NCBI GenBank assembly: GCA_029558955.1
Contig: JAKQCW010000124.1
Span: forward strand, 598 to 64,597
Length of the DNA: 64,000 nt
Source of the DNA: Chloroflexota bacterium
GTDB lineage: Bacteria > Chloroflexota > Anaerolineae > JAAEKA01
Direction of reading: 5' to 3'
Part shown: positions 64-18,340 of the stretch, one piece after another
Layout of the letters: every line of letters starts with the position of its first letter
Position numbering within the stretch: the stretch's first letter is position 1
Translations under genes and position numbers: made by a program
The notes under the pieces: model-generated
The model's input: only the letters and a program-made list of their open reading frames with translations
Database searches by the model: none
Told to the model about the DNA's origin: nothing

Positions 64-3000
64 CTAACGACTGGCTTGCAGCAAGCGCGTGCCGGCGCTG
101 CTGGTCTCAGCAATCCAGCCGGTGACTGGGCCGAAGCGCACCTGCCACCAACGTAGCCCATCGGCCTGGAGCGGGCCCCCGATGACCTCGCCCCGATCGC
201 CTGACCGCACCCTGGCAAACACGTCATCCTCCGGTTTTTCCAGCCAGCCGGCCGAACGGCGCAGGTTGGCGCCGGCGTAGACCACCTCCACCTGTCCACC
301 GATCCGAATCTCATCCGATGGCGTCGCAACCTCTACCGTCGGCAGCGCAGCCGGCGGGTCCCGGCGCGCGTTGTCCCAGGCCAGGTTTTCAGCGATCACC
401 TCCTCGCCCAGGTGCAGCGTCACCTGCTTGCCCGGCCCGCCGCACTCGGCCAGCGGCCCCTCATCGGCCGCGTCCACCTTGATGATGTAGCGCCCCAGCC
501 CGGTGTTGTCATAAACGACGGTCGCCGCGCCGCAGCCCTCGGCGCCGTTCACCGTGGCGGTCAACTCCGGCGGCGCGGCGCCGGCCGCGTCGGCCTGGAT
601 CTCGCCGAAATAGACGGCCGGCGGTGTGCGGCTGACGGGGTTGGCCAGGGCCACGACCTGCGGCTGGCCCAGCGCCGCCGCCGTCCCCACCTTCAGCACC
701 AGCGTGATCGGCTCGGTGACGTTGATCCAGTAGCCCTGGCCGAACCGAAGCGTTTGCAGGTCGTTGGCCCATGCCTGCTCTGGCCCGACGCGACGGTCGT
801 ACACCGTCCAGGGCGCGCCAGGCTCGGCGGCGTCGAAGCCGTAGACCGTGGAGTAGCAGCAGTCAGCGCCGCGGCCGATCTGGTTGCCATCCAGCGAGGC
901 CAGCGCCTCGGCGATGGGCAGGTCCATGGGCACGGGGTAGGCGAACAGGTTCCAGCCGGCCGTGTAGAAGGGGATCTCCACGCCCGCGGTCAGCACGTAG
1001 AGGCCCGACTGCTCCGCCTTGGCCGTGGCCTGGTTCTCGGCCGGATCGCGCTGGGTAGGCAGGCGGGTCCAGGTGACGCCCTCGTCGGGGGAGTAGTAGA
1101 TGGTCAGCGTGTGCTCGTAGCCTTCGGGAACCTCGCGCTGGTAGTAGGCGAATTCGATGCTGCGCGGCGCCGCGTCGGCGGCCTGGAAGCGGTAGGCCTG
1201 GCCCACCGGGGTCAGCCAGGCCGGCAGGCCGGGCGGCTTGGGCAGCGCCTCCAGCGACTCGACGCCGGTGTCGCCGGTCAGCGCGTCGGTGCGGTTGAAG
1301 ATGGTCACGCCGCCGTCCTCGGAGGACATGGGCGCGCCCAGGGCCCGGCTGTTGGCATAGAGGCCGCGCACGTCGGCGCCCAGCAATGCCCGGTCATCGG
1401 TTCCCAGCAAGGCGCGGTCATCGGTGCCCAGCAGGGCCCTGTCATCGGTTCCCAGCAGGGCCCTGTCATCGGCGCCCAGCAGGGCCCTGTCATCGGTTCC
1501 CAGCAGGGCGCGGTCATCGGTCCAGAGCAGGCCGCGGTCATCGGTGCCCAGCAACGCCCTGTCATCGGTGCCCAGCAGGGCGCGGTCATCGGTGCCCAGC
1601 AGCGCCCGATCGTCGGTCCACAGCCCCGCCCAATAGTCCACGCCCAGCAAAGCCCGGTCATCGGTGCCCAGCAAGGCGCGGTCATCGGTGCCCAGCAGAG
1701 CGCGGTCATCGGTGCCCAGCAAAGCCCGGTCGTCGGCGCCCAGCAAGGCGCGATCGTCGGCGCCCAGCAGGGCGCGATCGTCGGTGCCCAGCAAAGCGCG
1801 ATCATCGGTGCCCAGCAGGGCGCGGTCATCGGTGCGCAGCCCCAGCGGATCGATCCGCGCGATCAGTTGCTCCAGGGTGAGAGCCCCGACCAGCCCGTCA
1901 TCGGGTTGGCCATGGCGGCGCCGGGCCAGCGTCCGCACCAAGGCCAGCTTGCGCGGCCAACTGGGCGTCAGCGTGACGGTCGCGTCGCCCCAGGTGTAGG
2001 CGCCGTCAGGCGCGCGGCTGGCCTGGAGATAGAAGCGGCTCACGGCCTCGCGCCGATCGTGCAGCCACGCCCCCTGCTCGCCGCCGGACGCGGCGTTCTC
2101 CAGCCAGGTGCGCACCATGCCGGTGTAGGCCGGATAGTCCAGCGTCACCTGCGCCCGCAAGCGCTCGTCCCCATCCCCGGCCAGCGGCGCCGCCACAGCC
2201 ACCGGCGCAAAGGCCTGGCTGCCCAACTGATAGCCCGGCAGAATCTGCGTCAACAGGCGCTGGTCGGCGGAGATGGGCTGCGTCACGGTGATGGCCAGCC
2301 CCGGCCGGGCGATCTGGATCGACGCGGCCTGGCCGGGCGCGGCCGGCTGGCTGGTCGCGATGGCCACCGACCCGCCGCGGAAGAGCCAGGCATCCAGCGC
2401 CGGAACGGTGGTCGACAGCGATTTGGTCCCGGAGAGCACCACCGTGAACCCCTGGCCGCCGCCAGCCTCCGGCATCCAGCGCACCGTGGCCAGCCCCAGC
2501 TCCGGCATCTGCTGAACCGCGGCCCTTCCCTGGCCGTCCAGGGCTGTGACCGCGATGGCCGGCCCGGCCGGCCCGGCCGCCTGAGTCACGCTGATCAACA
2601 GCGTCGGGACCATCACCGGTCGCACCTGAACGTTGGGCTGCCAGCCCTCGACGGACGCGATGGGGATCGAGGTGGAGAGCGCGGAGACATCTTCGGCGCA
2701 GCCGATCAGCGCCGCGTCCCCGCTGTTGTCGAAGACACAGACGCGGTCGCCCTCGGTCGCGCCGCGCACCTTGATCGAGTCGCTGCGTCCCGTGACCCCC
2801 AGCGCGATCACCGTGTCGTCGCTGAGATCCGGGGTGCCGTGGGACTGGAACAAGAAGGTTTGGCCCTGCGCCACCGACATCCGGCCGCCGTCGGCCGCAT
2901 TGCGCAGATCGAAGAAGCGCGCCGGCAAGGCCGCGCCGCCGCCGGCCGGCTGCACGAACTGCACCTGGGTGACGGCCAGCGGCAGCGCGGCCGGGCCGGG

Positions 3001-6000
3001 GTTGACCCGCTCATCCGGCCGGTTCACCATGGGATAGTGGCGCTGGATCATCTCCCAGTCTGAGAACTTGGTGGTGTGGGCGGCCAGGGTATCGCGGCAT
3101 TCGCCCGGCCACTCGGCCACCGTCTCGCCGTCGGCGCCCTGGCTGTAAAAGCGCGCCGCGCCGAAGTCCGCGAATTCGCTGTAGGCATCGTCGTAGGCCG
3201 TGGTCATCACGCTGCCCGCGCAGTCCACGCTGATCACGTCGACGATGCTGCCGTCGGCCGCGGTGTGGTAGCCCAGGTAGTTGTCGGGCAGGAAGAGCAG
3301 GTGATGGCCCAGCTCGTGGGCGAAGGCCCGCCACCAGTCGCGCCCCAGGTCGGCCCGGCTCTGGCCGAACGGGTCCCACACCGGCCCGATGCGGATCGCA
3401 CCCGGATTGTAGGCCTTGGCGATCTGTACGCCGTCGCGGTCCTGCTCGTCCAGCGCCCGTTGCACGATGCCCCCCATGCTGGCGCGCGGCCGCACCCGAT
3501 TGCTGGCGTAGATCTGCACATCCGAGGTCAGCCACTGCTCCTTGTTCTGGAAGACGCGCACCCGACCCAGCGCCATCTGGCCGTTGGACAGATCGTACAG
3601 CACCTCCGACGAGCGCTGGAACGCCTCTTCCAACTGCAAGAGAAAATCGGGATCGCCGGTCGCGTCCCATTCCAGCGAGACATTCAGGTCGAAGAGCAGC
3701 AGGGGATTGTCGGGCGAAATGAAGAGCTCCCGCAGCAGGGCGCCGCTGACCACCGTCGAGGCGGCGATGGTGGTGCTGATCGGCTCGGCGCTGGTGTGGA
3801 AGAGCGTATAGGCCGTGGTGACGGTGCGGGTGCGGGTGATGGGCAACAGCGCGACCAGGGTGTCATCGGCGTCGATCTGGCCGCGGCCCTGCAAGAAGCC
3901 GTTGATGTCGGTGCGATAGGGGCCCCGGCTGCTGCCCAGCGGCCGCGCGCCGGCCACCTGGCCCGCGGGCAGTCGAAAGACCAGCGCGCCGGCCGCCGGC
4001 TGGCCGCTGGCCTGGTCCAGAACGCGCACCTGCGCGCCGCGCACGGGGAAGGGCCCGGTGGCCGCGCCCGACGCGCCGATGCTGGCGCGTTCCGCGGCCG
4101 TGTTGGGCTGCACCAACGGCCGGGCGGCCGCGGTCAGGCGCAGCACCGCGTTGTCGCTGCGCCCCATCAGCCCATCGGCCGCCGTGTCCCAGACAAACAG
4201 GTGCTGGCCGCTGCCCAGCGCCGCGCTCTGCACGCCGGCCGCGGGGGTGGCTGGCAGCCAGGCGCCCGGGCCGTTGAGCGAGTAGAAGGCCCGCACGTCG
4301 GCCAGCCTGCCCGGCGCGCCGTTGCTCAGGGTGAAGGTGACCGTCACCTCTGTCTGCGGGCTGATCAGCGCCGGCGGCCCGCTGCCAACGCCGCCGGCCG
4401 GCGTCTGCACCGCCAACCTGGGCGCGCCGGCCGCGGCCAGCCGCTCCCCCAACAGATTGCGAAACAGCACGCCGCCGGCCAGCAGGTCGGCCGCGCCGTC
4501 GCGGTTCGCATCGCCCCAGGCCACCCCGCCGCCGCTGCGCTTGGTCTCAGTCCAGGCCGCGTTGGGGTCCAGCAGGCCGTTGTCGTTCAGATAGAGCCGC
4601 GCGGCCTGGTCTCCGTTGATCGCCAGGTCCAGGTCGCCGTCGTTGTCCACGTCGCCCCAGGCCAGCCGGGCGTTGCGGTTGGTCTCGCGCGCGGTCCAGG
4701 TGGCGCTGGCGCTCAGCCGCCCCCCCTGGTTGCGGTAGAGATGCACCGCCTCATCCTGGTTGGAAACGGCCAGGTCCAGGTCGCCATCGCCGTCGTAATC
4801 GCCCCAGGCCAGGTTGCGCGTCTCGGCCGTCTGTTCCGACTCCCACGAGGGCTGGGCGTCCAGCACGCCGCCCCGGTTGACGTAAAGTCGCAGCCGCTGG
4901 CGGCGGTCGGCCACCAGCAGGTCCAGGTCGCCGTCGTTGTCCACATCGCCCCAGGCCAGCGCGCTGGTGTCCTGCGGCGCGGGCACGCGCCACACCGCGT
5001 CGGCCGACAGGCCGCGCGCCGGCGCGGCCGCCTGCGTGCCGGTCAGCGTCTGGCTGACGTTGGGCAGCACGCGCGCCACCCCGTCGCGGCAGATCAGGTT
5101 GCCCTGCGCATCGCGGCCACAGCTTTCCCCCGCGCCCACCGCCAGGTCCAAAAAGCCGTCGCCGTCCACATCGCCCCAGACCAGGCTGGAGATGGTCTCC
5201 TCGCTCAGCCCCTGCCACGTCGCGCCGGCGCTCAGCACGCCCTGATCGTTGCGAAAGAGCCGCACCCCGCCGTTCGAGCATTGCGGCTGGCCGCCCTCCA
5301 ACTGGCAGCTATAGGTGCGGATCAGGCTGCGCCCTCCCAGCCCCACCCAGCGGCAGTTGGTCACGCCGCCGGTGATGGCGCAGGAAGCCGCGCTGCCGGC
5401 GGCCAGGTCCGGGTCGCCATCGCGGTCATAGTCCCCCCAGGCCAGGGTGCGCACGTCGCCCCAGGCCCCGTCGGCGCTGCTCTGGGCCGGGTCGATGGGC
5501 TGGCGTTCCAGCGCGCCCTGCTGGTTGAGGTAGAGCCAGAGCTGACCGGGGGTGCATGGGGTGGGGCTGGTGCTGCACTGGCGGGAGAAGCCCAGCGCCA
5601 GGTCGAGGTCCTGGTCGCCATCCACATCGGCCCAGGCGGCCGAGACGGGCGCGCCGTCGCCGCTCTGCGGCAAGACCTGAGCGGCCGCCAGCGGCTGGCT
5701 GGTGTTGCGGTAGAGGCGGTTGGGCTGGTTGGAGGCGTTGCCCGCGCCCACGGCCAGGTCCAGGTCGCCGTCGCCGTCCACGTCGCCCCAGGCCAGGCCG
5801 GCCGCGTTGAAGCTGTCCTGGCTTTGCCAGCTTTCCTGGGCAGCGATGCGGCCCCCCTGGTTGGGGTAGACCCGCAGCCGGCACTGGCTGCGGGAGGCGG
5901 CGCAGTCCGAGCCCACCGCCAGATCTTCGCGGCCGTCTGCGTCCAGGTCCCCCAGCGCCAGCGACTGAATGGATTGGGTGGTGGTCATGGTCCAACTGCT

Positions 6001-7053
6001 CTGCCAGCTTTCGCTGCCCGGCTCCCGGCTGATCAGCCACAGTCGGCGCGGCTCGCGGCCGCCGGCGGCCACCACGTCGGGGCGGCCATCGCCGGTCACA
6101 TCGCCCACCGCCAGGTCGATGACGGCGCCCTCGGTCGCGGCCAGGGGGGTGGCTGTGCGGGCCAGGCCGGTCGGGCCGTTGTCGTAGAACGCCACGCCGC
6201 TCTGGCCCCCCACCACCAGCTCCAGCGCCGGGTCGTCGTCCAGGTTGACCCAGACCAGCGCCATGCTGTCCTCCATGTCGGCCGATGTCCAGATGGCCTC
6301 CTGGCTGAAGCGGCCACCTTCGTTGCGATACAGGCGGTTGGCGGCCAGGGGGCAGGGCTGTCCCGCGCTGCAGCCGCGCTCCGGCAGCACGTTGGCCACG
6401 GCCAGGTCCAGATCGCCGTCGCCGTCCGCGTCGCCCAGCGCCAGGGCGCGCGAGTCGTCGGCCTGGCGGGAGCTCCAGACGGCCTGGCGGGTCAGTTGGC
6501 CCCGAACGTTTTCGTAGAGACGTTCCAGACCGGGGGTGCAGCGGGTCTGCGTCCCCAGTTGGGTGGTTGTCGCCTGGCAGCGCACGCTGTTGGCCACCAC
6601 CAGGTCCAGGTCGCCGTCGCCGTCCACATCCCCCCAGGCCAGCGCGCTGCTGGCATCGCTTTCGGCCGAGGTCCAGGCGCCGGGCGCGTCGCTGCGCAGC
6701 GTGCCCCCCACGTTGATGGTGAGACGGCTGGGGCCGTTGACGTTGCTGACGGCCAGGTCCAGGTCGCCGTCGCCATCCACATCGCCCCAGGCTGCGCCGG
6801 TGGTGGCCGAGGCATCCTGCGACAGCCAGGCCAGCGTCAGCGGCTGCGCGGCTTCGTCCGTTCCGACGGGCTGTTCGGGCGGTGCGCCCTGCGCCGCGCC
6901 GCCTGGCGCGGCCAGAGTCAGAAATGCAGCCAGCAGCAGGCCAGCCAGGCCCAGCGCCAGGCCGGGGCGCGCCAGTCGTTCAGGCCAGCCGGCGTGGCCA
7001 GGCAGAATCCCCCGCGTCGGGTGCAATCGAACAGGATGGTCAGAGTTGTTCAT
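64..7053 (-). CDS. Giant secreted multidomain protein (~2329 aa). It has a signal peptide, at least 14 FG-GAP/VCBS-like repeats (WGDVDGDGDLDLAV), a central HExxH zinc-metallopeptidase-like motif (HELGHHLLFLPDNY, reminiscent of M6/InhA) and about 30 tandem TDDRALLG octapeptides near the C-terminus.
   Basis: ORF 64..7320 minus. The first ATG with a hydrophobic signal-like segment (RPGLALGLAGLLLAAFLTLAAPGGA) is codon 90, giving the start at 7053. Repeated WGDxDxDGDLDL motifs and the HELGH motif were read from the translation. Confidence 0.75.
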   Translation of the reverse strand: MNNSDHPVRLHPTRGILPGHAGWPERLARPGLALGLAGLLLAAFLTLAAPGGAAQGAPPEQPVGTDEAAQPLTLAWLSQDASATTGAAWGDVDGDGDLDLAVSNVNGPSRLTINVGGTLRSDAPGAWTSAESDASSALAWGDVDGDGDLDLVVANSVRCQATTTQLGTQTRCTPGLERLYENVRGQLTRQAVWSSRQADDSRALALGDADGDGDLDLAVANVLPERGCSAGQPCPLAANRLYRNEGGRFSQEAIWTSADMEDSMALVWVNLDDDPALELVVGGQSGVAFYDNGPTGLARTATPLAATEGAVIDLAVGDVTGDGRPDVVAAGGREPRRLWLISREPGSESWQSSWTMTTTQSIQSLALGDLDADGREDLAVGSDCAASRSQCRLRVYPNQGGRIAAQESWQSQDSFNAAGLAWGDVDGDGDLDLAVGAGNASNQPNRLYRNTSQPLAAAQVLPQSGDGAPVSAAWADVDGDQDLDLALGFSRQCSTSPTPCTPGQLWLYLNQQGALERQPIDPAQSSADGAWGDVRTLAWGDYDRDGDPDLAAGSAASCAITGGVTNCRWVGLGGRSLIRTYSCQLEGGQPQCSNGGVRLFRNDQGVLSAGATWQGLSEETISSLVWGDVDGDGFLDLAVGAGESCGRDAQGNLICRDGVARVLPNVSQTLTGTQAAAPARGLSADAVWRVPAPQDTSALAWGDVDNDGDLDLLVADRRQRLRLYVNRGGVLDAQPSWESEQTAETRNLAWGDYDGDGDLDLAVSNQDEAVHLYRNQGGRLSASATWTARETNRNARLAWGDVDNDGDLDLAINGDQAARLYLNDNGLLDPNAAWTETKRSGGGVAWGDANRDGAADLLAGGVLFRNLLGERLAAAGAPRLAVQTPAGGVGSGPPALISPQTEVTVTFTLSNGAPGRLADVRAFYSLNGPGAWLPATPAAGVQSAALGSGQHLFVWDTAADGLMGRSDNAVLRLTAAARPLVQPNTAAERASIGASGAATGPFPVRGAQVRVLDQASGQPAAGALVFRLPAGQVAGARPLGSSRGPYRTDINGFLQGRGQIDADDTLVALLPITRTRTVTTAYTLFHTSAEPISTTIAASTVVSGALLRELFISPDNPLLLFDLNVSLEWDATGDPDFLLQLEEAFQRSSEVLYDLSNGQMALGRVRVFQNKEQWLTSDVQIYASNRVRPRASMGGIVQRALDEQDRDGVQIAKAYNPGAIRIGPVWDPFGQSRADLGRDWWRAFAHELGHHLLFLPDNYLGYHTAADGSIVDVISVDCAGSVMTTAYDDAYSEFADFGAARFYSQGADGETVAEWPGECRDTLAAHTTKFSDWEMIQRHYPMVNRPDERVNPGPAALPLAVTQVQFVQPAGGGAALPARFFDLRNAADGGRMSVAQGQTFLFQSHGTPDLSDDTVIALGVTGRSDSIKVRGATEGDRVCVFDNSGDAALIGCAEDVSALSTSIPIASVEGWQPNVQVRPVMVPTLLISVTQAAGPAGPAIAVTALDGQGRAAVQQMPELGLATVRWMPEAGGGQGFTVVLSGTKSLSTTVPALDAWLFRGGSVAIATSQPAAPGQAASIQIARPGLAITVTQPISADQRLLTQILPGYQLGSQAFAPVAVAAPLAGDGDERLRAQVTLDYPAYTGMVRTWLENAASGGEQGAWLHDRREAVSRFYLQASRAPDGAYTWGDATVTLTPSWPRKLALVRTLARRRHGQPDDGLVGALTLEQLIARIDPLGLRTDDRALLGTDDRALLGTDDRALLGADDRALLGADDRALLGTDDRALLGTDDRALLGTDDRALLGVDYWAGLWTDDRALLGTDDRALLGTDDRALLGTDDRGLLWTDDRALLGTDDRALLGADDRALLGTDDRALLGTDDRALLGTDDRALLGADVRGLYANSRALGAPMSSEDGGVTIFNRTDALTGDTGVESLEALPKPPGLPAWLTPVGQAYRFQAADAAPRSIEFAYYQREVPEGYEHTLTIYYSPDEGVTWTRLPTQRDPAENQATAKAEQSGLYVLTAGVEIPFYTAGWNLFAYPVPMDLPIAEALASLDGNQIGRGADCCYSTVYGFDAAEPGAPWTVYDRRVGPEQAWANDLQTLRFGQGYWINVTEPITLVLKVGTAAALGQPQVVALANPVSRTPPAVYFGEIQADAAGAAPPELTATVNGAEGCGAATVVYDNTGLGRYIIKVDAADEGPLAECGGPGKQVTLHLGEEVIAENLAWDNARRDPPAALPTVEVATPSDEIRIGGQVEVVYAGANLRRSAGWLEKPEDDVFARVRSGDRGEVIGGPLQADGLRWWQVRFGPVTGWIAETSSAGTRLLQASR
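1380..1850. repeat. 24-nt tandem repeat array inside the giant CDS, encoding (T/A)DDRALLG octapeptides. About 19 near-perfect DNA copies.
   Basis: Direct repeats ggtgcccagcagggcgcggtcatc and variants are visible in the sequence. Both strands translate to repetitive peptides in the ORF track. Confidence 0.85.
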
Positions 7054-7089
7054 GCGCTTGTCGCCTTGGTGTTGATCCACAATCAGCTC

Positions 7090-7160
7090 GCCGTTCGGGC
7101 CGGTCTCCGACCGAGCCCCGCCGCGCGCGCCGCTCGGGCCGGTCTCCGACCGAGCCCCGC
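7090..7160. repeat. Two direct copies of cgggccggtctccgaccgagcccc in the divergent promoter region. This is a member of dispersed repeat family A.
   Basis: Copies at 7096-7119 and 7135-7158. The same core recurs at 26600-27060, and in inverted form at 17650-17835. Confidence 0.8.
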
Positions 7161-7185
7161 TCTCCTGTTCAACGGCGCGGACAGC

Positions 7186-7214
7186 TTTTTGTTTCACCCC
7201 CTCCGGCATATAAT
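7186..7214 (+). promoter_or_regulatory. Candidate sigma70-type promoter for pncB. The -10 element TATAAT is at 7209-7214. The -35 element is weak.
   Basis: catataattcacg lies 42 nt upstream of the pncB ATG. An AAGGAG ribosome-binding site is at 7244-7249. Confidence 0.3.
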
Positions 7215-7255
7215 TCACGCCACGACTCCACACCGGCTGCACAAGGAGAACGACC

Positions 7256-8806
<1,551 letters not shown>

Positions 8807-9056
8807 CCGATGTCGCCTGAAACGCACGCGCAGTCGCAGCAGCAAAAACTCTCCAGGCCTGCGCCGGGCGAAATCGTGGCCGACCTGTGGGTGCAGCATT
8901 CCCGGCCCGGCAGGTTTCCAGATCGTGCGCCCGACGCGATCAGATGGTTGAGCCGGAGGCGGCCTTTGGGGCCCCAGTCCCTGGCGCGCCTCCGGTTTCT
9001 CGCGATATTTCCCCCTGTGGTACACTCCGTGGCATCACATCATCAGGAGACAACCC

Positions 9057-10847
9057 ATGACTGAACCATTGCTGACCGGCGCGGAAGAGATCGCCTGGAA
9101 CCTGGCCGATCTCTACGCCGCCATGGACGATCCGCAGCTCGACGCGGATCTGGACACCTGCGACGCCGAGGCGCAGGCCTTTCAGGCTGACTACCGCGGC
9201 CGCGTGGCCAACCTGAGCGCGGCCGAGTTGGCTGCACTCATCACCCGCTATGAGACGCTCAACGAGCGCATGGGCCGCATCGGCGCCTTTGCCGGCCTGA
9301 ACTGGACCCAGAACACCGAAGACCCGGCGCGCGGCGCGCTGATGCAGCGCATCACCGAGCGCGGCGCCCGGCTGAGCCAGGAGCTGGTCTTCCTGGATCT
9401 GGAGCTGGCCGCCGCGCCCGACGAGACCGCGGCGGCCTGGCTGGCCGATCCGGCGTTGGCCCGCTGGCGGCATTGGCTGGAGATGGTGCGCATCTTTCGG
9501 CCCCACCTGCTCAGCGAGCCGGAGGAAAAGCTCCTGAGTGAGAAATCGGTCACCGGCGCGGCCGCCTGGGTGCGCTTCTTCGAGGAGGTGCATGGCGCGG
9601 CCCGCTATGAGCTGGACGGCGAACAACTGAGCCGCGATCAGACGCTCAGCAAGCTCTACGACCAGGATCGCGACCTGCGCCGGCGCGCGGCGGCCGCGGT
9701 CACGGCCGGCCTCAAGACCATGCAGCGCACCAACACCTACGTCTTCAATACCCTGCTGGCCGACAAGGCCTCCGACGATCGGCTGCGCAGCTACCCGACC
9801 TGGATCAGCGGCCGTAACCTGGGCAACCAGGTGGACGACCGCACGGTGGAGGCGCTGATCGACGCAGTCACCGGCCGCTACGACATCGTGGCGCGCTATT
9901 ACCGGCTCAAGCGCCGCCTGCTGGGGCTGGATGAGCTGTTCGACTACGACCGCTACGCCCCGCTGCCGGCCGCCGATCGCTTTTACTCCTGGGAGCAGGG
10001 GCGGCAGATCGTGCTGGACGCCTACGGCCGCTTCCATCCGCGCATGGCCGAGGTGGCCGGCTGGTTCTTCGATGGGCGCTGGATCGACGCGCCGCCGCGG
10101 CCGGGCAAGATGGGGGGCGCCTTCAGCCACGGCGTCGTGCCCTCGGTGCATCCCTACATCCTGCTCAACTACGAGGCCAAGCCCAGGGACGTGATGACCC
10201 TGGCCCACGAGCTGGGCCACGGCGTGCATCAGAAGCTGTCGGGGGTGCAGGGCGTCCTGCAGGCTGACACGCCGCTGACCACGGCCGAGACCGCCTCGGT
10301 TTTCGGCGAGATGTTGGTCTTCCAAAGCCTGATGGCGCAGGAGAGCGACCCGGCCACGCGGCTGGGGATGCTCACCGGCAAGATCGAGGACAGCTTCGCC
10401 ACCGCTTTCCGCCAGATCAGCATGAACCGCTTCGAGCACGCCATGCACACGGCGCGGCGCGAGGAGGGCGAGCTCACCACCGAGCGCTTCAGTGAGCTGT
10501 GGCTGGCGACGCAGCGCGCCATGTTCGGCGACAGCGTGACCATGACCGAGGACTATGGCCTGTGGTGGAGCTATGTGCCGCACTTCCTGGGCACGCCCGG
10601 CTACGTCTATGCCTACGCCTTCGGCGAGCTGCTGGTGCTGGCGCTCTATGCCCGCTACCGGCAGGAGGGGGGCGACTTCCCCGAGCGCTACATCGCCATG
10701 CTGACCGCCGGCGGCTCCAACTGGCCGCACGAGATCGTCAAGCCGCTGGGCGTGGACCTGACCGACCCCGACTTCTGGGGCAACGGGCTGGACATCCTGG
10801 AAGGGCTGGTGGCCGAGGCAGAGCAGTTGGCGGATAGTTTGGGTTGA
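9057..10847 (+). CDS. pepF: Oligoendopeptidase F (M3B family zinc metallopeptidase)
   Basis: 596 aa with the HELGHGVHQ zinc-binding motif and overall PepF-like layout. An AGGAGA ribosome-binding site is present. Confidence 0.85.
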   Translation: MTEPLLTGAEEIAWNLADLYAAMDDPQLDADLDTCDAEAQAFQADYRGRVANLSAAELAALITRYETLNERMGRIGAFAGLNWTQNTEDPARGALMQRITERGARLSQELVFLDLELAAAPDETAAAWLADPALARWRHWLEMVRIFRPHLLSEPEEKLLSEKSVTGAAAWVRFFEEVHGAARYELDGEQLSRDQTLSKLYDQDRDLRRRAAAAVTAGLKTMQRTNTYVFNTLLADKASDDRLRSYPTWISGRNLGNQVDDRTVEALIDAVTGRYDIVARYYRLKRRLLGLDELFDYDRYAPLPAADRFYSWEQGRQIVLDAYGRFHPRMAEVAGWFFDGRWIDAPPRPGKMGGAFSHGVVPSVHPYILLNYEAKPRDVMTLAHELGHGVHQKLSGVQGVLQADTPLTTAETASVFGEMLVFQSLMAQESDPATRLGMLTGKIEDSFATAFRQISMNRFEHAMHTARREEGELTTERFSELWLATQRAMFGDSVTMTEDYGLWWSYVPHFLGTPGYVYAYAFGELLVLALYARYRQEGGDFPERYIAMLTAGGSNWPHEIVKPLGVDLTDPDFWGNGLDILEGLVAEAEQLADSLG

Positions 10848-10849
10848 GG

Positions 10850-11415
10850 TGCGGAGCCGTCCACGAATGGAGCACGAATACACGAATGCGGTTGGTGTGG
10901 CGCGCCGTCCACGAATGGGGCACGAATACACGAATGCGGTTGGTGTGACGCGCGCCGTCCACGAATGGGGCACGAATACACGAATGCGCTCGCCGCAGCA
11001 ACTGCTTCTTCGCCCATGTGGGTGCCGACTGCACCTCCACCCGTGTGAGCGTCGACTGCACCTCCATCCATGTGGGCGCCGACTGCACCTCCACCCGTGT
11101 GAGCGGCGACTGCACCTCCACCCGTGTGAGCGTCGACTGAACATCCATCCATGTGGGCGCCGACTGGATATCCACCCATGTGGACGCCGACTGAACATCC
11201 ACCATGGATGTCATCTACGCAGAATCTCCCGTACGCACACCCAAGCATTCGTGTATTCGTGGCCCCATTCGTGGACGGCCCCCCGCGCACCCAAGCATTC
11301 GTGTATTCGTGCCCCATTCGTGGACGGCGCGCGTCACACCCAAGCATTCGTGTATTCGTGGCCCCATTCGTGGATGGCCCCCCGCACACCCGAACATTCG
11401 TGTACTCGTGCGGTA
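10850..11415. repeat. Composite palindromic repeat block. It has 3 direct copies of a ~62-bp unit (ccgtccacgaatggggcacgaatacacgaatgcg...), then ~7 tandem ~30-bp units (cgactgcacctccacccgtgtgagcg alternating with ...atccatgtgggcg), then 4 inverted copies of the first unit (cacccaagcattcgtgtattcgtggccccattcgtggacgg).
   Basis: Read directly from the sequence. ORF-track entries here (10688..11914 minus, 10849..11430 plus, 11204..11548 plus) translate to repetitive HEYTNA-type peptides on both strands, so they are not genes. Confidence 0.85.
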
Positions 11416-11844: not shown

Positions 11845-12330
11845 ATGAGCAAGTCCGCTTCGCAGCGCAAGCCGGCGCCGCGCAAGACCGTTCCGCAACA
11901 ACCTGACACCTCAACCGGCAAGAAAGGCGGCTCAGGCCAGAGCCAGTCCAACAAGAACAAGCAGGGCAAGGGCCAGCCAGCCGTCAAGCAGCGCACCACT
12001 CTGTTGACCATCGTCCTGGCGCTGGTCAGCATCGGCGCCGTGGTAGACGCCATCGTGCCGCTGCTCTATCGACGAGAGACCTATGAGATTTCCCATCCAA
12101 TGGTCTTGGGCGGCGCGATCCTGGTGGGCCTGTTGGGCGTCGCCGGGGTTGTCGGTCTGTGGCTCTGGAAGCGCTGGGGGCTTTATCTCTTCGTGGCCAG
12201 CGTCGTGGGCAGCATCGCCGTCGGCCTGATGATCTATCCGTCCATGGTGGTGGCCTTCCACGCCGTCATCCCGCTGCTGATCCTGGGCTATGGTCTGACC
12301 AAAGACAATGCCCTGGCGCACTTCGAGTAG
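11845..12330 (+). CDS. Small membrane protein with a Lys/Gln/Ser-rich N-terminus and 3-4 predicted transmembrane helices (hypothetical).
   Basis: ATG at 11845 is preceded by an AAAGGAG ribosome-binding site. Hydrophobic segments follow the basic N-terminus. Confidence 0.6.
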   Translation: MSKSASQRKPAPRKTVPQQPDTSTGKKGGSGQSQSNKNKQGKGQPAVKQRTTLLTIVLALVSIGAVVDAIVPLLYRRETYEISHPMVLGGAILVGLLGVAGVVGLWLWKRWGLYLFVASVVGSIAVGLMIYPSMVVAFHAVIPLLILGYGLTKDNALAHFE

Positions 12331-12362
12331 AGGCGCCATTCCGCGATCCAAGCAATCTGAAC

Positions 12363-12391
12363 AAGCCCCGCAACGGGGCTTGTTTTTTTTT
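12363..12391 (+). terminator. Rho-independent terminator (aagccccgcaacggggctt followed by a T9 run).
   Basis: Perfect 8-bp GC-rich stem followed by ttttttttt, directly downstream of the 11845..12330 CDS. Confidence 0.75.
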
Positions 12392-12508
12392 GCAGAAATG
12401 CACCGTTGCTGCGCAAAAATGGGGTGTCGCATCTCACACGGCTTCCCTTGAATTGGAACCCTTGCTCAGGAGAATCTCATCCGTTGCGCCGGGAGCGCCG
12501 TCGCGACC

Positions 12509-12538
12509 TTGACGCCGTCCGGTTTGCCATGTAGAATA
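12509..12538 (+). promoter_or_regulatory. Candidate promoter: -35 TTGACG, 18-bp spacer, -10 TAGAAT.
   Basis: cttgacgccgtccggtttgccatgtagaat lies upstream of the RHH-like ORF at 12572. Confidence 0.35.
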
Positions 12539-12571
12539 CAGGCACCGACATCTGTGCTCAAGGACTGTGCC

Positions 12572-12697
12572 ATGGCTGCTGCATCACCCCCTGTTCGTAT
12601 CAACCTGGTGCTGCCGGCCGACGTTGCCAAGACCCTGTGAGAGGTCGTGCCATCGCGCAAGCGAGCCCGCTTCATTGGCGAGGCCATCGAACATTAG
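12572..12697 (+). pseudogene. Ribbon-helix-helix (CopG/antitoxin-like) small gene interrupted by an in-frame TGA: MAAASPPVRINLVLPADVAKTL*EVVPSRKRARFIGEAIEH*.
   Basis: The INLVLP….R..I.EAI pattern is typical of RHH antitoxins. The TGA at 12638-12640 is in frame. An AAGGA ribosome-binding site lies upstream. Confidence 0.45.
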
Positions 12698-12791
12698 TTG
12701 AGACGCGTCCAGTTGGAGGCTGCCCTGAAAGCCAGCGCGGGCGCATGGCAGGATGCCGATCACCCGGTCACAACTCAATGGAGGTTTCAAG

Positions 12792-14639
12792 ATGACAAAA
12801 CCACAATCTCGGCGTTGGACAGTCTCTCTGGTGCTCCTGCTGCTGACCAGCCTGCTGGCCGGCTGTGTTGGCCTCTCGCAGGAGTTGACGCCCCCTGAGA
12901 CTCCGGTCCCCACCCCTGAGGAAACTCAGGCAGTTGGCATGGCCAACCCGGCCTCGGTTCATTGCCAGGAGCAGGGCGGCGTGCTGGAGATCCGCACCGG
13001 CGCCGACGGCGGCCAGTACGGCGTCTGCCTCTTTGCCGATGGCAGCGAGTGTGATGAATGGGCCTTCTATCGCGGCGCGTGCCAGCCGGGCGGCCAGGCC
13101 ATCCCGACGCCCACGCTCCCCGGCGCGTTGGCGCCTGAGGCGGAAATCGGCGAGATTCTGGCCCAGATCCAGTTGCCCGCCGACGCATATTCGGGCGAGC
13201 CTGCTCTGCTGCCGCTGTCTGTCCCGGAGGGCAGCCCGCCGCTGTGGGCCCTGTACAGCACCGGTATGCGCAACTTCGAGCTTGATCCGGTTCCCTCGCA
13301 CTTCCTGGCGCTCTTCACCCGCAACGATGCAGGTTGGCAGGAAGTCGCGCGCATCGATCTCGACGCCGAACCCACCGACGACACGCTGTTGATGGCCCCG
13401 ATGCCCGATTTCATCGCCCCGGAAGGCGTGCAGCAGGTATCCATCGATGGCGATCACATCTGGCTGACGGTGGACGGCGGCGTGGGCGCGCACAGCGGCG
13501 TCTTCCAACTGCTGAGCTTCGACGGCCAGGCGCTGACCCTGGCGCTGGCCAGCTCAGCCGCCAGCCCCGGCGCCGGCTACGTCGCCGACGTCAATCAGGA
13601 TGGCCAGAACGATGTGGTGTTCAACGCCACCGATCCTTACATCTTCTGCTACGCCTGCGGCGTGCGCCATCCCTATTTCCAGGTTCACACCTGGCTGGGC
13701 GATGCCCTGGTTCCGGTGGAGATCTCCGGCCTGCTGATGGGGCAGCGGGGCACGCCGCCGGACGAGGCCAACAGCCAGGCGGTGGCGCTGGCTGAGGCGG
13801 GGCTCTGGCCCGAGGCATTGGCCAAGATCGACGAGGCGGTGGCGCTGGCCGGCGACGACGACCCGGCCGCCGCGGCCGGCACGCTGCGCTGGAACCAAGC
13901 GCTGATTCGCCTCAACCACGACGCGCTGTTGGGCGCGGCCGGCGAAAGCGCCTACCCGCTGCTGAGCCAGGTCTTCTATGGCGACTACGCCGCGGCCGTG
14001 GATCTGATGCGCGCCGTCAGCGCCGAAGAGATCTTCAGCCCCGACACGCCGCTGGTGACCGGCACAGCCGCCGAGGGGTGGCAGCCTGAGCTGAGCAGCT
14101 ATCTGCTGAGCAGCACCGAGGCGGCGCTGGCCCTCCAGCCTGAGCTGGCCCCGGCCTGGTTCGTGAGCGCCTGGGGGCGTTACCTGGCTGATCCCGCTGA
14201 TCCACGCGTCATCATCGACGTCGCCCGCGCGGCCGAGCTGGCGCCGGAGGATGCGCTCTACAGCGCGGCCGTGGCCGCCCTGCCGGAGCTTCCCCCGCCG
14301 ACGGCCCAGGCCAGCCAGGAGCCGGCCGTGCGCATCCGCTTTGCGGCCGGCGGCACATCGGCCGCCGTGCCGGGCAACATCGGCCCCGGCCAGGTGCGCC
14401 AGTATGTGCTGGGCGCGGCCGAGGGTCAGACCATGACCGTCAGCGTGGCCTCCCCCAACAACGATGTGGCTCTGGCCATCTGGGGCGCGGATGGCGTCGT
14501 GCTGCTCAGCGACCATGCCGGCGCAACCGAGTGGCAGGGCGTTCTGCCCGCCACACAGGACTACTTCATCGGTCTGTCCGGCGCCGCCGAGCCGACGCTC
14601 TACCGGCTGACCGTGTCGATCCCCCCCGCCAGCGAGTGA
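12792..14639 (+). CDS. Lipoprotein with an N-terminal DUF333-like (putative hemolysin) domain and a large domain of unknown function.
   Basis: Signal peptide plus LLAGC lipobox. The MANPASVHCQEQGGVLEIRTGADGGQYGVCLFADGSECDEWAFYRGAC segment matches the DUF333 pattern. A GGAGG ribosome-binding site is present. Confidence 0.7.
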   Translation: MTKPQSRRWTVSLVLLLLTSLLAGCVGLSQELTPPETPVPTPEETQAVGMANPASVHCQEQGGVLEIRTGADGGQYGVCLFADGSECDEWAFYRGACQPGGQAIPTPTLPGALAPEAEIGEILAQIQLPADAYSGEPALLPLSVPEGSPPLWALYSTGMRNFELDPVPSHFLALFTRNDAGWQEVARIDLDAEPTDDTLLMAPMPDFIAPEGVQQVSIDGDHIWLTVDGGVGAHSGVFQLLSFDGQALTLALASSAASPGAGYVADVNQDGQNDVVFNATDPYIFCYACGVRHPYFQVHTWLGDALVPVEISGLLMGQRGTPPDEANSQAVALAEAGLWPEALAKIDEAVALAGDDDPAAAAGTLRWNQALIRLNHDALLGAAGESAYPLLSQVFYGDYAAAVDLMRAVSAEEIFSPDTPLVTGTAAEGWQPELSSYLLSSTEAALALQPELAPAWFVSAWGRYLADPADPRVIIDVARAAELAPEDALYSAAVAALPELPPPTAQASQEPAVRIRFAAGGTSAAVPGNIGPGQVRQYVLGAAEGQTMTVSVASPNNDVALAIWGADGVVLLSDHAGATEWQGVLPATQDYFIGLSGAAEPTLYRLTVSIPPASE

Positions 14640-14651
14640 AATGTGGACAAT

Positions 14652-14694
14652 GATGGGTGACTCGGCATCAGCGATGCGTCACGAGTCACCCATC
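14652..14694. terminator. 13-bp inverted repeat (gatgggtgactcg…cgagtcacccatc) between convergent genes. It overlaps the 3' end of ribF.
   Basis: Read from the sequence. No strong T-run follows, so it is a hairpin only. Confidence 0.35.
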
Positions 14695-15623
14695 AACAGC
14701 TCCCGCGCGGCCGCCGCGTCCTGACGAATCTGCGCAGATAGCGCCTCGATGTTGGGGAAGCGTTGCTCCGGCCGCAGCCGGGCGACGAATTGCAGCGTCG
14801 CCGGCCGGCCATAGAGGTCGCCGTCGAAATCCAGCAGGTGGGCCTCCACCGTGCGCGGGCCATTGTCGAAGCTGGGGCGCACCCCCACGTTGGTGACGCC
14901 AGGCAGCCATGCCCCGTGTCGCGGCAAGTCGTCATCCAGCCGCATCCAGGTGGCGTAGACGCCGTTGGCCGGCAGCAGGCGCCCCTCGGGCACTGCCAGG
15001 TTCGCGGTGGGAAAGCCCAGCAGATGGCCGCGCTGCGCGCCCTTGACCACTTCGCCGCTCACCTGGTAGAGACGGCCCAGTTGCCGGCCGGCCGCCTGGA
15101 CATCCCCCTCCGCCAGATAGCTGCGAATGCGGCCGCTGCGCACCTCTTCCCCGCCCAGCAGTTGCGGCTCGATGGTGTGTACCTGGTAGCCCAGCTCCTG
15201 GCCGATGGCGCGCAGGGCCGGCACGTCCCCCTCGCGGTTGCGACCCAAGGCGAAGTCTGGCCCCACCCAGAGCGCGGCCATCTGCACCCGCCGCCGCACC
15301 TGGCCGATGAACTCAGCGGCCGGCATGCGGGCCGTCTCCAGGCTGAACGGATAGACCACGGCGAAGTCCAGCGCCAGCTCAGCGAACACCTCCAGCCGTT
15401 CCGGCATGGTGGTCAGGTAGGAATGAACCCGGTCTGGGCGCAGCAGGGCCGCCGGGTGGGGATCGAAGGTCAGCACGCCGGCCTGGCGGCCATGGCGGCG
15501 CGCGTCCTCGCGCATGGCAGCCAGCAGCGCCTGATGGCCGCGGTGGACGCCGTCGAAATTGCCGATGGCCAGGTTGCAGGGTGTGGTCAGCGGTGGGTCG
15601 GGCAGGGCGTAGAAGGTGTTCAT
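14679..15623 (-). CDS. ribF: Bifunctional riboflavin kinase / FMN adenylyltransferase
   Basis: 314 aa with the N-terminal motif GNFDGVHRGHQ. Its start overlaps the truB stop as ATGA. Confidence 0.9.
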   Translation of the reverse strand: MNTFYALPDPPLTTPCNLAIGNFDGVHRGHQALLAAMREDARRHGRQAGVLTFDPHPAALLRPDRVHSYLTTMPERLEVFAELALDFAVVYPFSLETARMPAAEFIGQVRRRVQMAALWVGPDFALGRNREGDVPALRAIGQELGYQVHTIEPQLLGGEEVRSGRIRSYLAEGDVQAAGRQLGRLYQVSGEVVKGAQRGHLLGFPTANLAVPEGRLLPANGVYATWMRLDDDLPRHGAWLPGVTNVGVRPSFDNGPRTVEAHLLDFDGDLYGRPATLQFVARLRPEQRFPNIEALSAQIRQDAAAARELLMGDS

Positions 15624-16585
15624 GGCGGTTCTTGGTTGGCCAATATCTTGCTGGGCCGCCAGACGCGGGCGGCAGCGTCGCCGGCGACGATGCCCAGAAA
15701 GCGGCCCTGGGGATCGTAGGCGCGCGCCGGGCCCGCCTGCAGCGGCGCGGCCGCGGCCACAGCCTGGCCATGCAGCAGCCGGCTCACCTCGGCCGCGTTC
15801 AGGGCGACGGCCGGCAGATGCGCCACGGCCGCATCGGCCGGCTGCACGGCAGCCGCCAGCGCGCCGGCCTCGGTCAGGCTCTCCAGAGCGACGGCGTTTT
15901 CGACGCTGAAGGCGCCGACGGCGGTGCGACGCAGCGCGCTCAGATGCGCGCCGCAGCCCAGCGCCTGGCCCAGGTCGTGGGCAATGGAGCGCACGTAGAC
16001 GCCGGCCCCACAGCGCACGTGCAGGCGCAGGGTCGCGCCCTCCAGGTGCAGCAGGGTCAGCTCGTAGATGGTCGCCGGCCGCGGCTCGACCTCCACCCTC
16101 TCGCCGGCGCGCGCCCGTCGATAGAGGGGCACGCCATCCCGCTTGAGCGCGGAGAAGGCCGGCGGCCGTTGCATGATCTCGCCGCGAAAGGCCTCCAGCG
16201 CCCGCTCGATCTGGTCGGCGGTCAGCGCCGGCGCGTTGTCCGCCTCGCCCGGTCGCTGAGGCGCGGCGCGGTCAGCCAGGGCGTGCCAATCGCTGAACCG
16301 GCTCACGATCTCCCCCTCGGCGTCGTAGGTGTCGGTGACCACGCCCAGCGTCACCTCGGCCAGATAGCTCTTGGGCTGGCCGGTCAGGTATTCCAGCAGG
16401 CGGGTGGCGCGGCCCAGGCAGAGCACCAACACGCCGGTGGCCATGGGGTCCAGCGTGCCGGCGTGGCCCACCTGGCGCAGGCCGGCCAGACGCCGCACCC
16501 GGGCCACCACATCGTGCGAGGTCCAGCCGGCCGGCTTGTCCACGTTCAGCACGCCGCCCAGCGGCGTCGGGTCAGCAGCGCTCAT
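15620..16585 (-). CDS. truB: tRNA pseudouridine(55) synthase
   Basis: LNVDKPAGWTSHDVV and GHAGTLDP motifs. Its start overlaps the nrnA stop as ATGA. Confidence 0.9.
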   Translation of the reverse strand: MSAADPTPLGGVLNVDKPAGWTSHDVVARVRRLAGLRQVGHAGTLDPMATGVLVLCLGRATRLLEYLTGQPKSYLAEVTLGVVTDTYDAEGEIVSRFSDWHALADRAAPQRPGEADNAPALTADQIERALEAFRGEIMQRPPAFSALKRDGVPLYRRARAGERVEVEPRPATIYELTLLHLEGATLRLHVRCGAGVYVRSIAHDLGQALGCGAHLSALRRTAVGAFSVENAVALESLTEAGALAAAVQPADAAVAHLPAVALNAAEVSRLLHGQAVAAAAPLQAGPARAYDPQGRFLGIVAGDAAARVWRPSKILANQEPP

Positions 16586-17619
16586 GCTGGCGGCTCCACG
16601 GCCGGGCTTTGCTGTGCGGGGAGGTGTTGCTGGCGTTGTTGGGCCAGCGCCAGCTTCAATGCCGCCAGCACCTGCTCGGCGGCCTGCGCCAGGGGGGGCG
16701 CCAGGGTGCAGCCGGCCGCGCGCGGGTGGCCGCCGCCGCCCAACGCCAGCGCGACCTGGGCCACGTCGAAGCCTGGGGCCGCGCGCATGCCCACGTCCAC
16801 CTGCCCATCGGCGCGCTCGGTGAGGATCAGCGCCACGTCAGCCTCTTCGGCGCCGACCATGAAGTTGGCCAGGCCGGAGTCGCTCTGTTCGATGCTGTTG
16901 CAGCGGGCGCGCATGGTCAGCGGGATCGCGGTCCAGATGATGCGCTCCTCCAGCCGCAGCTCGGCCAGGGCCTGTCCCCACAGGCAGATGGTGTCCACAT
17001 CGCGCCGCTCCAGCACCAGCTCGTTGACCGCGGCCAGCGAGGCGCCGGCCTCCATCAGCCGCTGCGCCACCCCCAACAGCGCGGGGGTGACATGGCCCAC
17101 GCGGAAGCTGCGCGTGTCGGTGACGATGCCGGTCAGCAGGCATTGAGCCGCCTGCGGGCCGATGGGCCAGTGCAGCGCCTCGGCCACGCGCCAGACCAGC
17201 TCGGCCGTGCTGCTGGCAGCCGGGTCGACGATGTTCAGCGCGCCGAAGTGGAGGTTGGTGATGTGATGGTCGATGTTGACCAGCGGCGCGTCGGCCAGCG
17301 AGGGGTCGTAGGCCTGGCCCAGTCGCGCCATGTCGCTGCAATCGAGCGCGATCACCAGCTCGTAGCCGTTGCCCCGCCGCTGTGGCTTCATGGGGTTGCG
17401 AACCAGCTCCCGCCAGCCGGGCGCGACCTGATCGGCGCGCAGCAGGGCGGGGACGCCGTCCTGGTTAGCGGCGATCACCTGATGGCCCTGCGCCTCTAGC
17501 AGCCATTTCAGCCCCAGTTGGGAGCCGATGGCGTCGCCGTCTGGGTTGACATGGCTGAGCAGCAGGATGCGCCGCGGATCGGCCAGCAGTGAGTTGAGAG
17601 CTTCGAAAGCGGAGGACAA
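16582..17619 (-). CDS. nrnA: DHH/DHHA1 phosphoesterase, a NrnA-type nanoRNase / pAp phosphatase.
   Basis: LLSHVNPDGDAIGS DHH motif. Likely TTG start at 17619 with an AAGAGG ribosome-binding site. This is the usual position in the nusA-infB operon. Confidence 0.8.
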   Translation of the reverse strand: MSSAFEALNSLLADPRRILLLSHVNPDGDAIGSQLGLKWLLEAQGHQVIAANQDGVPALLRADQVAPGWRELVRNPMKPQRRGNGYELVIALDCSDMARLGQAYDPSLADAPLVNIDHHITNLHFGALNIVDPAASSTAELVWRVAEALHWPIGPQAAQCLLTGIVTDTRSFRVGHVTPALLGVAQRLMEAGASLAAVNELVLERRDVDTICLWGQALAELRLEERIIWTAIPLTMRARCNSIEQSDSGLANFMVGAEEADVALILTERADGQVDVGMRAAPGFDVAQVALALGGGGHPRAAGCTLAPPLAQAAEQVLAALKLALAQQRQQHLPAQQSPAVEPPA

Positions 17620-17649
17620 GCGAAAACCTCTTTGAGTCGAAGTCGGGGC

Positions 17650-18199: not shown

Positions 18200-18214
18200 G
18201 ATCATCCCTTGTCT

Positions 18215-18335: not shown

Positions 18336-18340
18336 CTCTG

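Follow-up and report, generated by a model that had tools for sequence, protein, structure and literature searches.

We describe here a gene at positions 64-7053 of a 64,000-nucleotide (nt) stretch of contig JAKQCW010000124.1 from a Chloroflexota bacterium, a stretch we refer to throughout as the window. The gene lies on the minus strand, as do all features of it given below, and its predicted product is an exported multidomain protein of an unnamed Chloroflexota family in which integrin-like propellers, a protease-like module and an array of octapeptides are carried on a single polypeptide. The open reading frame (ORF) extends over 64..7320; the ATG at 7053 is the likely start, with two 36-nt elements and the start of a divergent NAPRTase gene lying upstream of it, and the coding sequence from there (64..7053, from the ORF list and its translation) specifies 2,329 amino acids and a stop codon. 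The gene is real; a protein 99% identical to that of the window (P0001) exists, as do named proteins from metagenome-assembled genomes (MAGs) of 'Anaerolineae bacterium'. Long ORFs also overlap the gene on the opposite strand and in other frames (for example 412-3063 and 3076-7524 on the plus strand, the longest encoding 1,482 amino acids), and these are a by-product expected at ~70% G+C, not separate genes; ORFs of 164 and 174 amino acids in the repeat region are products of the repeats themselves.

A hydropathy scan finds only one hydrophobic segment in the whole protein, at residues 27-54, with Arg residues just before it. The N-terminal region that contains it (residues 1-55; 6889..7053) fits a signal peptide or a signal anchor and is consistent with export, in keeping with the signal peptide proposed when the sequence was first read.

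Propellers and the protease-like module

We find that residues ~75-880 (4414..6831) probably form two integrin-alpha-like 7-bladed propellers with DxDxDG calcium loops. FG-GAP and FG-GAP_3 are the only Pfam families recognised in the whole protein and both fall within this region, FG-GAP_3 with 11 stretches (250.8 bits against a cut-off of 26.9, E 9e-76) and FG-GAP with eight (135 bits against 22.1, E 6e-40). Strict GDxDxDGxxD loops number 12 and are spaced 47-66 residues apart with longer gaps of 75-117; two of the gaps between loops (110 and 117 residues) are of double length, which gives about 14 blades and is consistent with the at least 14 FG-GAP/VCBS repeats of the original prediction. 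When a profile of the family is compared with PDB sequences it matches CRTAC1 (6e-23), integrin alpha-V (~4e-11, ~1e-10), the fungal lectin PVL (1e-8) and integrin alpha 4, 5 and IIb, and all of these matches are confined to the propeller part. Scores above the gathering cut-off, recurring calcium loops and homology to solved propellers thus together place the region in the FG-GAP/VCBS class of integrin-alpha-like beta-propellers. We also note that the NCBIfam model NF052323 ('T9SS-dependent M6-like inactivated metalloprotease') weakly matches the FG-GAP part (E 0.005), which suggests that Bacteroidota may likewise hold fusions of an M6-like domain with FG-GAP repeats.

Beyond the propellers lies a conserved region that we call module A (residues 900-1490, ~590 residues; 2584..4356), made up of beta-sandwich domains and a catalytic-like domain and found in all 113 of the more distant homologues. 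The putative zinc-endopeptidase catalytic domain (residues ~1100-1345; 3019..3756) was delimited from DSSP assignments on an AlphaFold2 model and from invariant residues. It carries the predicted zinc-binding signature HELGHHLLFLPDNY (residues 1246-1259; 3277..3318), of the form HExxH-x6-D-x-Y, whose HExxH is the only one in the protein, and the sequence GSVMT (residues 1280-1284; 3202..3216), a candidate Met-turn in which the G, S, M and T columns are invariant. H1246, E1247, H1250, D1257, Y1259 and M1283 do not vary in family alignments of 65, 41 and 23 sequences (40-80% identity); several Cys are likewise invariant across the family alignments, and N1258 is so in two of the three (those of 41 and 23 sequences). 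In the AlphaFold2 model of residues 881-1500 (predicted local distance difference test score, pLDDT, 83.7; predicted template-modelling score, pTM, 0.82) beta-sandwich domains surround an alpha/beta core, in which a long strand is followed by a backing helix, four strands, an active-site helix with the HExxH, a beta-ribbon, the Met and short C-terminal helices. The predicted order of these elements is that described for metzincins. The motif of the metzincin clan is HExxHxxG/NxxH/D, in which the third ligand of snapalysins and thuringilysins (M6) is an aspartate, and the IgAse motif has one extra residue, then x-Tyr, with a His-to-Asp spacing of +7 (PMC12237041). The elements by which a metzincin motif is recognised in that source, namely an HExxH, an Asp in the third-ligand position shortly after it and a conserved downstream Met, are all present here. 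The invariant residues and the metzincin order of elements in the model therefore support what had been claimed at the outset, an exported FG-GAP protein with a protease-like HExxH module.

The same prediction had labelled the module M6/InhA-like, and as a statement of family this label does not stand. Peptidase_M6 (PF05547) scores 12 bits against a curated cut-off of 22 (E 0.13), and TIGR03296 (M6 domain) reaches 16.9 bits against 110.8, over ~25 residues only, in 17 of 23 members (best E 0.003). Other weak Pfam matches are to M7 (E 0.046), Zincin_1 (E 0.062) and, in one of the 23 members, Peptidase_M64 (PF09471; E 0.22). The weak Pfam and NCBIfam matches include no peptidase family other than zincins (M6, M7, M64, Zincin_1 and a metzincin lipoprotein). 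Comparison by hhalign with PF05547 fragments, all of them short, gives an alignment of 18 columns with 61% identity and a one-residue gap (probability 46%, P 2e-4), and HELGHHLLFLPDNY aligns to AHEYGHDL-GLPDLY of true M6 fragments. The motif HELGHHLLFLPD, that is HExxH-x6-D, has one residue more than the M6 motif HEXXHXXGXXD and lacks its Gly. We therefore reject membership of peptidase family M6, with both models below their cut-offs and a differing motif, and retain a likeness in the active-site motif alone. Nor do we assign the module to M64 (IgAse): the spacing agrees with HExxHxxxGxxD, but the Gly is absent and the match to PF09471 is weak.

The octapeptide array and its family-wide counterparts

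The array sits between module A and a second conserved module, B, and occupies residues 1741-1892 (1378..1833), where Tandem Repeats Finder, the translation and the layout of orthologues together define 19 units. Tandem Repeats Finder reports a 24-nt period with 19.5 copies over 1373-1840 and 82% matches. Eight [TA]DDRALLG units are followed by VDYWAGLW (residues 1805-1812; 1618..1641), three TDDRALLG units, TDDRGLLW (residues 1837-1844; 1522..1545) and six more [TA]DDRALLG units, after which come the degenerate terminal units ADVRGLYA and NSRALGAP (residues 1893-1908; 1330..1377), which fit the family motif WGANxRxLGAP. VDYWAGLW has the same relative place in all orthologues and TDDRGLLW is also fixed in them; these two Trp-containing units look like retained units of an ancestral type. 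Exact [TA]DDRALLG units number 17, TDDRALLG accounting for 14 of them, and with the two variants and the degenerate ends this makes about 20 units. The original prediction had counted ~30, had placed the array at 1380-1850, whereas the core is 1378-1833, and had described its DNA repeats as almost perfect and recently expanded. In fact the DNA units are only 81-88% identical (mean pairwise identity 0.81), the 14 TDDRALLG peptides are encoded by 12 DNA versions and all variable sites among these are synonymous (third positions, CGN/AGG for Arg, CTG/TTG for Leu). Among the 17 exact units the proportions of synonymous (pS) and non-synonymous (pN) differences, by Nei-Gojobori counting, are 0.41 and 0.03, which indicates that the peptide and not the DNA is conserved, by purifying selection, that the duplications are not recent and that the array is old. 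The presence of the same architecture in orthologues only 63% identical likewise contradicts a recent expansion. An overlapping gene or RNA behind the conservation can be ruled out since synonymous sites vary freely.

In the AlphaFold2 model of residues 1501-2329 the array is coil (pLDDT 27-46) and both of its flanks are confident. No Pfam or NCBIfam match was found for residues 1741-1908 in scans of the whole protein, which returned nothing outside FG-GAP at E<=0.1. We consider a coiled coil unlikely, since on an alpha-helix a period of eight residues would shift by 80 degrees with each unit. With the array alone as query, three spurious short ORFs were the only matches and even the true orthologues were missed; this search was insensitive and says little on other proteomes.

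The layout is shared by all seven close relatives (63-99% identical), in which N units are followed by VD[FY]W..LW, three units (two in P0007), TDDRGLLW, M units and [AS]D[VI]RGLYA, with N between 3 and 10 and M between 3 and 7. Even orthologues with an overall identity of only 63% have the same unit peptide, and orthologues hold 14-22 units. Clusters formed at 90% identity contain alleles of different length, as had been anticipated for a length-variable array: 22 units in eight records against 20 in the window and two further records in one cluster, 20 against 19 in another, and 14, 16 and 18 elsewhere. The most direct comparison is with a contig from JGI metagenome 3300010356 (L085), which matches the window at every base of the 3,000 nt upstream and the 1,290 nt downstream of the array and differs solely by 48 nt, two extra units lying between two identical 24-nt units. 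Unit-by-unit comparison of the DNA places this indel at 1690..1737, at the junction of units 4 and 5 (window 1713/1714). An indel of this kind between identical units is the signature of slippage or unequal recombination, and with flanks identical on either side it indicates that copy number is changing now. Length variation is thus current and always in frame; it is concentrated in the flanks of the array, and the block in the middle, which holds the two Trp-containing units, does not vary. Alleles of 20 and of 22 units both recur in independent assemblies, which argues against an assembly artefact. We considered and rejected a contingency locus with on-off phase variation: with a 24-nt unit, the alleles observed always differ by a whole number of units and stay in frame.

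The window protein belongs to a very large family, which we saw only in Chloroflexota (class Anaerolineae in its broad sense). An exhaustive profile search with the catalytic part returned at least 1,795 cluster representatives (50% identity) at E<=1e-3, 655 of them at E<=1e-30; the best 150 matches listed are all close family members, with no bridge among them to named peptidase families. The 80 loci examined from a species-level genome collection (of 136 confirmed) are all in Chloroflexota MAGs, from Anaerolineae, Anaerolineales, Caldilineales, Ardenticatenaceae, Promineifilaceae and Thermoflexales. Many paralogues may share a genome, at least 10 in one Anaerolineae MAG (DATHYN01; L020, L022, L027, L033, L035, L037, L063, L072, L076 and L079), and two (L038 and L047) are adjacent in tandem on JAXLWB010000006.1 of a Caldilineaceae MAG; the 64-kb window holds one member and no second. 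Paralogues differ in their repeat unit (for example WGGESA[VI], GWGGKRA and GNIRGWG). The databases name these proteins only 'VCBS repeat-containing' or 'hypothetical', and in literature linking FG-GAP or VCBS to Chloroflexota we found nothing on this family. The combination of domains that had first appeared unusual is thus the standard architecture of a family in which at least 1,795 representatives share the protease module.

The peptide repeat had not been recognised from any family when first noticed, and it proves to have counterparts throughout the one described here. Members share a conserved motif WGANxRxLGAP[VIM][AS]SxDG, whose counterpart in the window is YANSRALGAPMSSEDG, and most have 2-4 copies of a short WGPNxR-type motif just upstream of it. 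Many lineages have expanded this segment into long arrays, each with its own unit, among them GLGPND[LA]Y (~17-23 copies), GPDDRFGY, DDRFGSA (period 7), [TP][ND]SRGGLG, GPNAIGIG, GGGGVDLR and others. A tandem repeat occupies the site of the array in 36 of the 62 species-level loci long enough to judge, with a period of 8 in 21, 7 in 10 and 6 in 3, and copies number 8 or more at 17 loci. Identical peptides are again encoded by many DNA versions with synonymous differences only in the five other lineage-specific arrays that we examined; 21 GLGPNDLY peptides, for instance, derive from 20 DNA versions with a mean identity of 0.80. TDDRALLG is, by these comparisons, one clade's variant of a family-wide repeat segment.

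The array is flanked by further domains in the C-terminal half. A variable beta-sandwich region (residues 1500-1698; 1960..2556), modelled as strands with pLDDT 60-79, ends in the family motif ...REAVSRFYLQ... and is followed by a clade-specific helical segment (residues 1699-1740; 1834..1959) with two predicted helices (199-215 and 227-234 of the C-terminal model). Beyond the array, module B (residues about 1909-2245, ~340 residues; 319..1329) is predicted to be beta-rich (pLDDT ~90) and is found in about 90-110 of the 113 more distant homologues, comparison with which puts the conserved block at residues ~1891-2230; it has no Pfam match at E<=10. A small beta tail (residues 2246-2329; 67..318; strands with pLDDT ~60) is specific to the close clade. 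The tail is SH3-like by eye only, with no Pfam match at E<=10 and a eukaryotic SH3 as its best PDB match (E 0.77), and we reject its assignment as a bacterial SH3 (SH3b) domain. No part of the protein beyond residue 880 has a Pfam match at E<=0.1 in the whole-protein scan, nor at E<=10 in a sub-region scan that covered the flanks of the array (residues 881-1740 and 1901-2329), and comparison of the C-terminal 1,449 residues with PDB sequences gave no relevant match. Foldseek found no match in the PDB at E<=0.001 for the model of residues 1501-2329; both models used as Foldseek queries are multidomain, and these searches say little on individual domains. In its C-terminal and inserted domains the family is highly modular: an InhA-like MAM domain (PF20773; P0045 residues 1053-1190, P0066 residues 346-444) occurs in some distant members, and proprotein-convertase P domains, DUF11 or cadherin-like domains occur in others.

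The intergenic region shared with the divergent NAPRTase gene contains two 36-nt hairpin-forming elements (7086-7121 and 7125-7160), the two repeat copies that had been noticed in this divergent promoter region. Each can form a small imperfect hairpin (GGGC-U-CGGUC / GACCG-GCCC), and five related copies lie at 26662-27039. The whole leader folds no better than shuffled sequence (z = -1.27), no Rfam match was found in the upstream region, and promoter and terminator scans of it gave nothing useful. An 88-bp tandem array (26622-27042; 4.8 copies, 97% matches), each copy of which contains the hairpin-forming element of 7086-7160, lies between a tRNA-guanine transglycosylase gene (25409-26695, minus strand) and a gene for an FG-GAP/BACON protein (27281-29230, plus strand), so both FG-GAP genes of the window have the element upstream. 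Synteny with the divergent NAPRTase gene is retained at orthologous loci. A 752-residue ORF with no Pfam match at E<=0.001 adjoins the NAPRTase gene (8940-11198, minus strand). In the genome of the P0004 orthologue (L001-L004, ~12100-18900) the gene is followed by RHS/YD-shell toxin cassettes (Tox-URI2, Ntox44) that lie on the opposite strand, and contigs that are otherwise syntenic differ in these cassettes; the matching side of the window is cut at position 1.

Functional interpretation and its rivals

We propose, with a probability of roughly 45%, that the product of this gene is an exported multidomain zinc endopeptidase-adhesin and, with about the same probability, that the array serves as a regular, extended, length-tunable spacer or tether between the propeller-protease half and the C-terminal half. 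The polypeptide would then run from a signal or anchor segment through two propellers, beta-sandwiches, an Asp-metzincin-type domain and further beta-sandwiches to the array, module B and the tail, and the propellers would bind ligand or substrate. Module A is probably an active Asp-metzincin-like endopeptidase of a family of its own with an M6-like active-site signature, as its conserved residues and modelled order of elements suggest; H1246 and H1250 would be zinc ligands, with D1257 as the third, E1247 would act as general base and Y1259 as 'tyrosine switch', and M1283 would be the residue of the Met-turn. The ancestral repeat segment would have comprised 2-4 copies of WGPNxR...G with a 7-8-residue period, the array being this clade's version of it. 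Array length would set the reach between the two halves, in-frame gain or loss of units, through slippage at identical 24-nt units or unequal recombination between them, would make this length tunable from strain to strain, and selection would hold the peptide of every unit constant. We read the array as a spacer because it is an in-frame, non-globular-looking segment between conserved halves whose length changes by whole units and whose peptide is constant within a lineage. In one recent account, Chloroflexota are increasingly regarded as monoderm (10.1101/2025.08.19.671072), and one cultured member has a multilayered envelope (PMC13319060); we infer that a tunable stalk would suit such an envelope setting.

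Several observations weigh against this proposal. The catalytic profile has no match among PDB sequences at E<=10, and the postulated protease fold has no significant match to a hidden Markov model (HMM) or to a solved structure. The Foldseek search of the PDB with the model of residues 881-1500 is dominated by Ig-like pilin domains, and the sole peptidase in its list is an adamalysin (3hdb_A) at rank 43 (E 0.019, TM 0.18-0.25). The canonical Gly of HExxHxxGxxH/D is absent. As for the array, a plain spacer would not need all eight positions conserved in every unit, nor three hydrophobic residues in eight, nor fixed Trp-containing units, and low AlphaFold2 confidence cannot tell disorder from an unfamiliar repeat fold. 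That the units are so strictly uniform and contain hydrophobic residues suggests that the array is more than a passive linker, and its units may pack together in a repeat fold that AlphaFold2 misses, may be the site for a co-evolving partner or may be a cleavage product.

The idea of a co-evolving partner can be developed into an account in which the array presents a short linear motif in multivalent form and each octapeptide is a binding site, perhaps for the protein's own or a neighbouring FG-GAP propeller (in homophilic adhesion or kin recognition between filaments), for an envelope polymer or for calcium. We consider this rather unlikely. It would accommodate the conservation of every residue of the unit within a lineage and the difference in unit between lineages and between paralogues of the same genome, the constant pairing of the repeat with integrin-like propellers in the family, the 2-4 WGPNxR copies that members without expansion still keep and the abundance of paralogues within genomes (one MAG has at least 10). 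Integrin propellers, moreover, recognise short peptide ligands. Against this, the charge of the unit ranges from -1 to +2 between lineages, and AlphaFold2 does not dock the array on module B. The array might instead be a polyprotein-type precursor of lineage-specific octapeptide signals, cut at each unit boundary by the protease encoded in cis or by another, and we think this improbable. Identical peptides in tandem, saturated synonymous differences and sequences specific to a lineage together make up the pattern of a multi-copy peptide precursor, precursors of this kind are described in fungi (PMC6339444, PMC7329392), and the repeat always shares its polypeptide with an endopeptidase that is probably active. 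At a similarly low probability, such a protein would be a peptide-signal factory that releases ~17 identical octapeptides (TDDRALLG here; GLGPNDLY, GPDDRFGY and others elsewhere) as species- or paralogue-specific signals among filamentous Chloroflexota. It would parallel, in bacteria, the KEX2-processed repeat proteins of fungi, and its copy-number polymorphism would tune dose. Yet the units follow one another with no spacer or discernible cleavage motif, no more than 2-4 degenerate copies are present in most of the family, the fixed Trp-containing units would have no role, and a multidomain context of 2,329 residues is unlike any known precursor.

It could also be supposed that the HExxH module is a catalytically dead pseudo-protease, serving only as scaffold or binding domain. 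The missing metzincin Gly, the M6 similarity that lies under every curated threshold and the weak match of the FG-GAP part to the NCBIfam family of 'M6-like inactivated metalloproteases' would all fit, but the H, E, H, D, Tyr and Met are invariant in 65 sequences of 40-80% identity, which would be unexpected for an inactivated enzyme, and we give the idea little credence. That the array or its copy number is an artefact of assembly, or meaningless low-complexity sequence, can be practically discounted. The data are metagenome assemblies, in which repeats can collapse, and the 48-nt indel does lie between identical 24-nt units; however, the units differ among themselves and can therefore be placed by reads of ~150 nt, three records have the 20-unit allele and eight independent ones that of 22 units, the layout is kept in orthologues down to 63% identity, and the reading frame is always kept with a strong synonymous excess.

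Relation to known peptidases, propellers and repeats

No component of the endopeptidase-adhesin that we propose is new in kind (the propellers are FG-GAP, the peptidase is of metzincin type and the peptide repeat varies in copy number), and the family as such is undescribed. Module A (~590 residues) and module B (~340 residues) lie outside any Pfam or NCBIfam model, and the family is large and occurs in lineages abundant in soils, sediments and wastewater sludge; to define it would add a new Asp-metzincin-like peptidase family. The behaviour of the repeat is unusual, combining peptide identity despite saturated synonymous divergence, wholesale replacement of the unit between lineages and ongoing change in copy number. 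Uniform peptides, ~80% DNA identity, unit replacement and copy-number change together point to a constraint on the uniformity of units and not to a universal motif, and its cause may lie in units that stack on one another, in a partner that co-evolves with them or in the release of peptides.

The propellers resemble those of integrin alpha, CRTAC1 and PVL lectin in their significant profile matches and DxDxDG calcium loops, and differ in that 14 tandem blades are fused to a protease module. With M6 peptidases the window protein has in common the pattern AHE-x-GH-x-L...LPD-x-Y, with a presumed Asp third ligand and a Tyr two residues on, and a downstream S/L-M-S/T, the M6 fragments showing W-x-L-M-S where the window protein has GSVMT; like them it would be a secreted multidomain enzyme with beta-sandwich domains, and a few relatives of the window protein have an InhA-like MAM domain. 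Unlike M6, the window motif has an extra residue between HExxH and Asp and no Gly, and the segment before the Met is ~22 residues long as against ~13; the two FG-GAP propellers, the repeat segment and module B are none of them M6 features. The IgAse (M64) of gut Thomasclavelia is alike in the +7 spacing from second His to Asp, in the x-Tyr that comes next, in the Asp as third ligand and in a beta-ribbon before the Met-turn (PMC12237041), but it retains the Gly (HExxHxxxGxxD) and has no domain architecture in common with the window protein.

For the array, several kinds of repeat invite comparison. The RTX nonapeptide beta-roll and the 8- or 16-residue repeats of ice-nucleation proteins consist of short units of Gly, Asp or Asn plus hydrophobic residues that stack into solenoids, and RTX repeats are disordered without calcium. 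The array, by contrast with RTX, has a period of 8 and not 9 and no GGxGxD, and unlike either kind of solenoid it has no Pfam repeat match and is not predicted by AlphaFold2 to be one. Fungal KEX2-processed repeat proteins and the alpha-factor precursor likewise carry tandem identical, lineage-specific short peptides on a secreted protein (PMC6339444, PMC7329392); they are, however, small dedicated precursors with dibasic cleavage sites between cores, whereas the window array has no spacer and is part of a very large multidomain protein. The closest functional analogue would appear to be the SD-repeat region of the staphylococcal Clf/Sdr surface proteins, in which short in-frame peptide repeats of exported proteins are encoded by imperfect DNA repeats, vary in copy number between strains and lie between functional domains (PMC3324548). 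The SD repeats belong to LPXTG-anchored proteins of Firmicutes and their unit is a dipeptide, while that of the array is an octapeptide with hydrophobic residues and fixed variant units that is wholly different between lineages.

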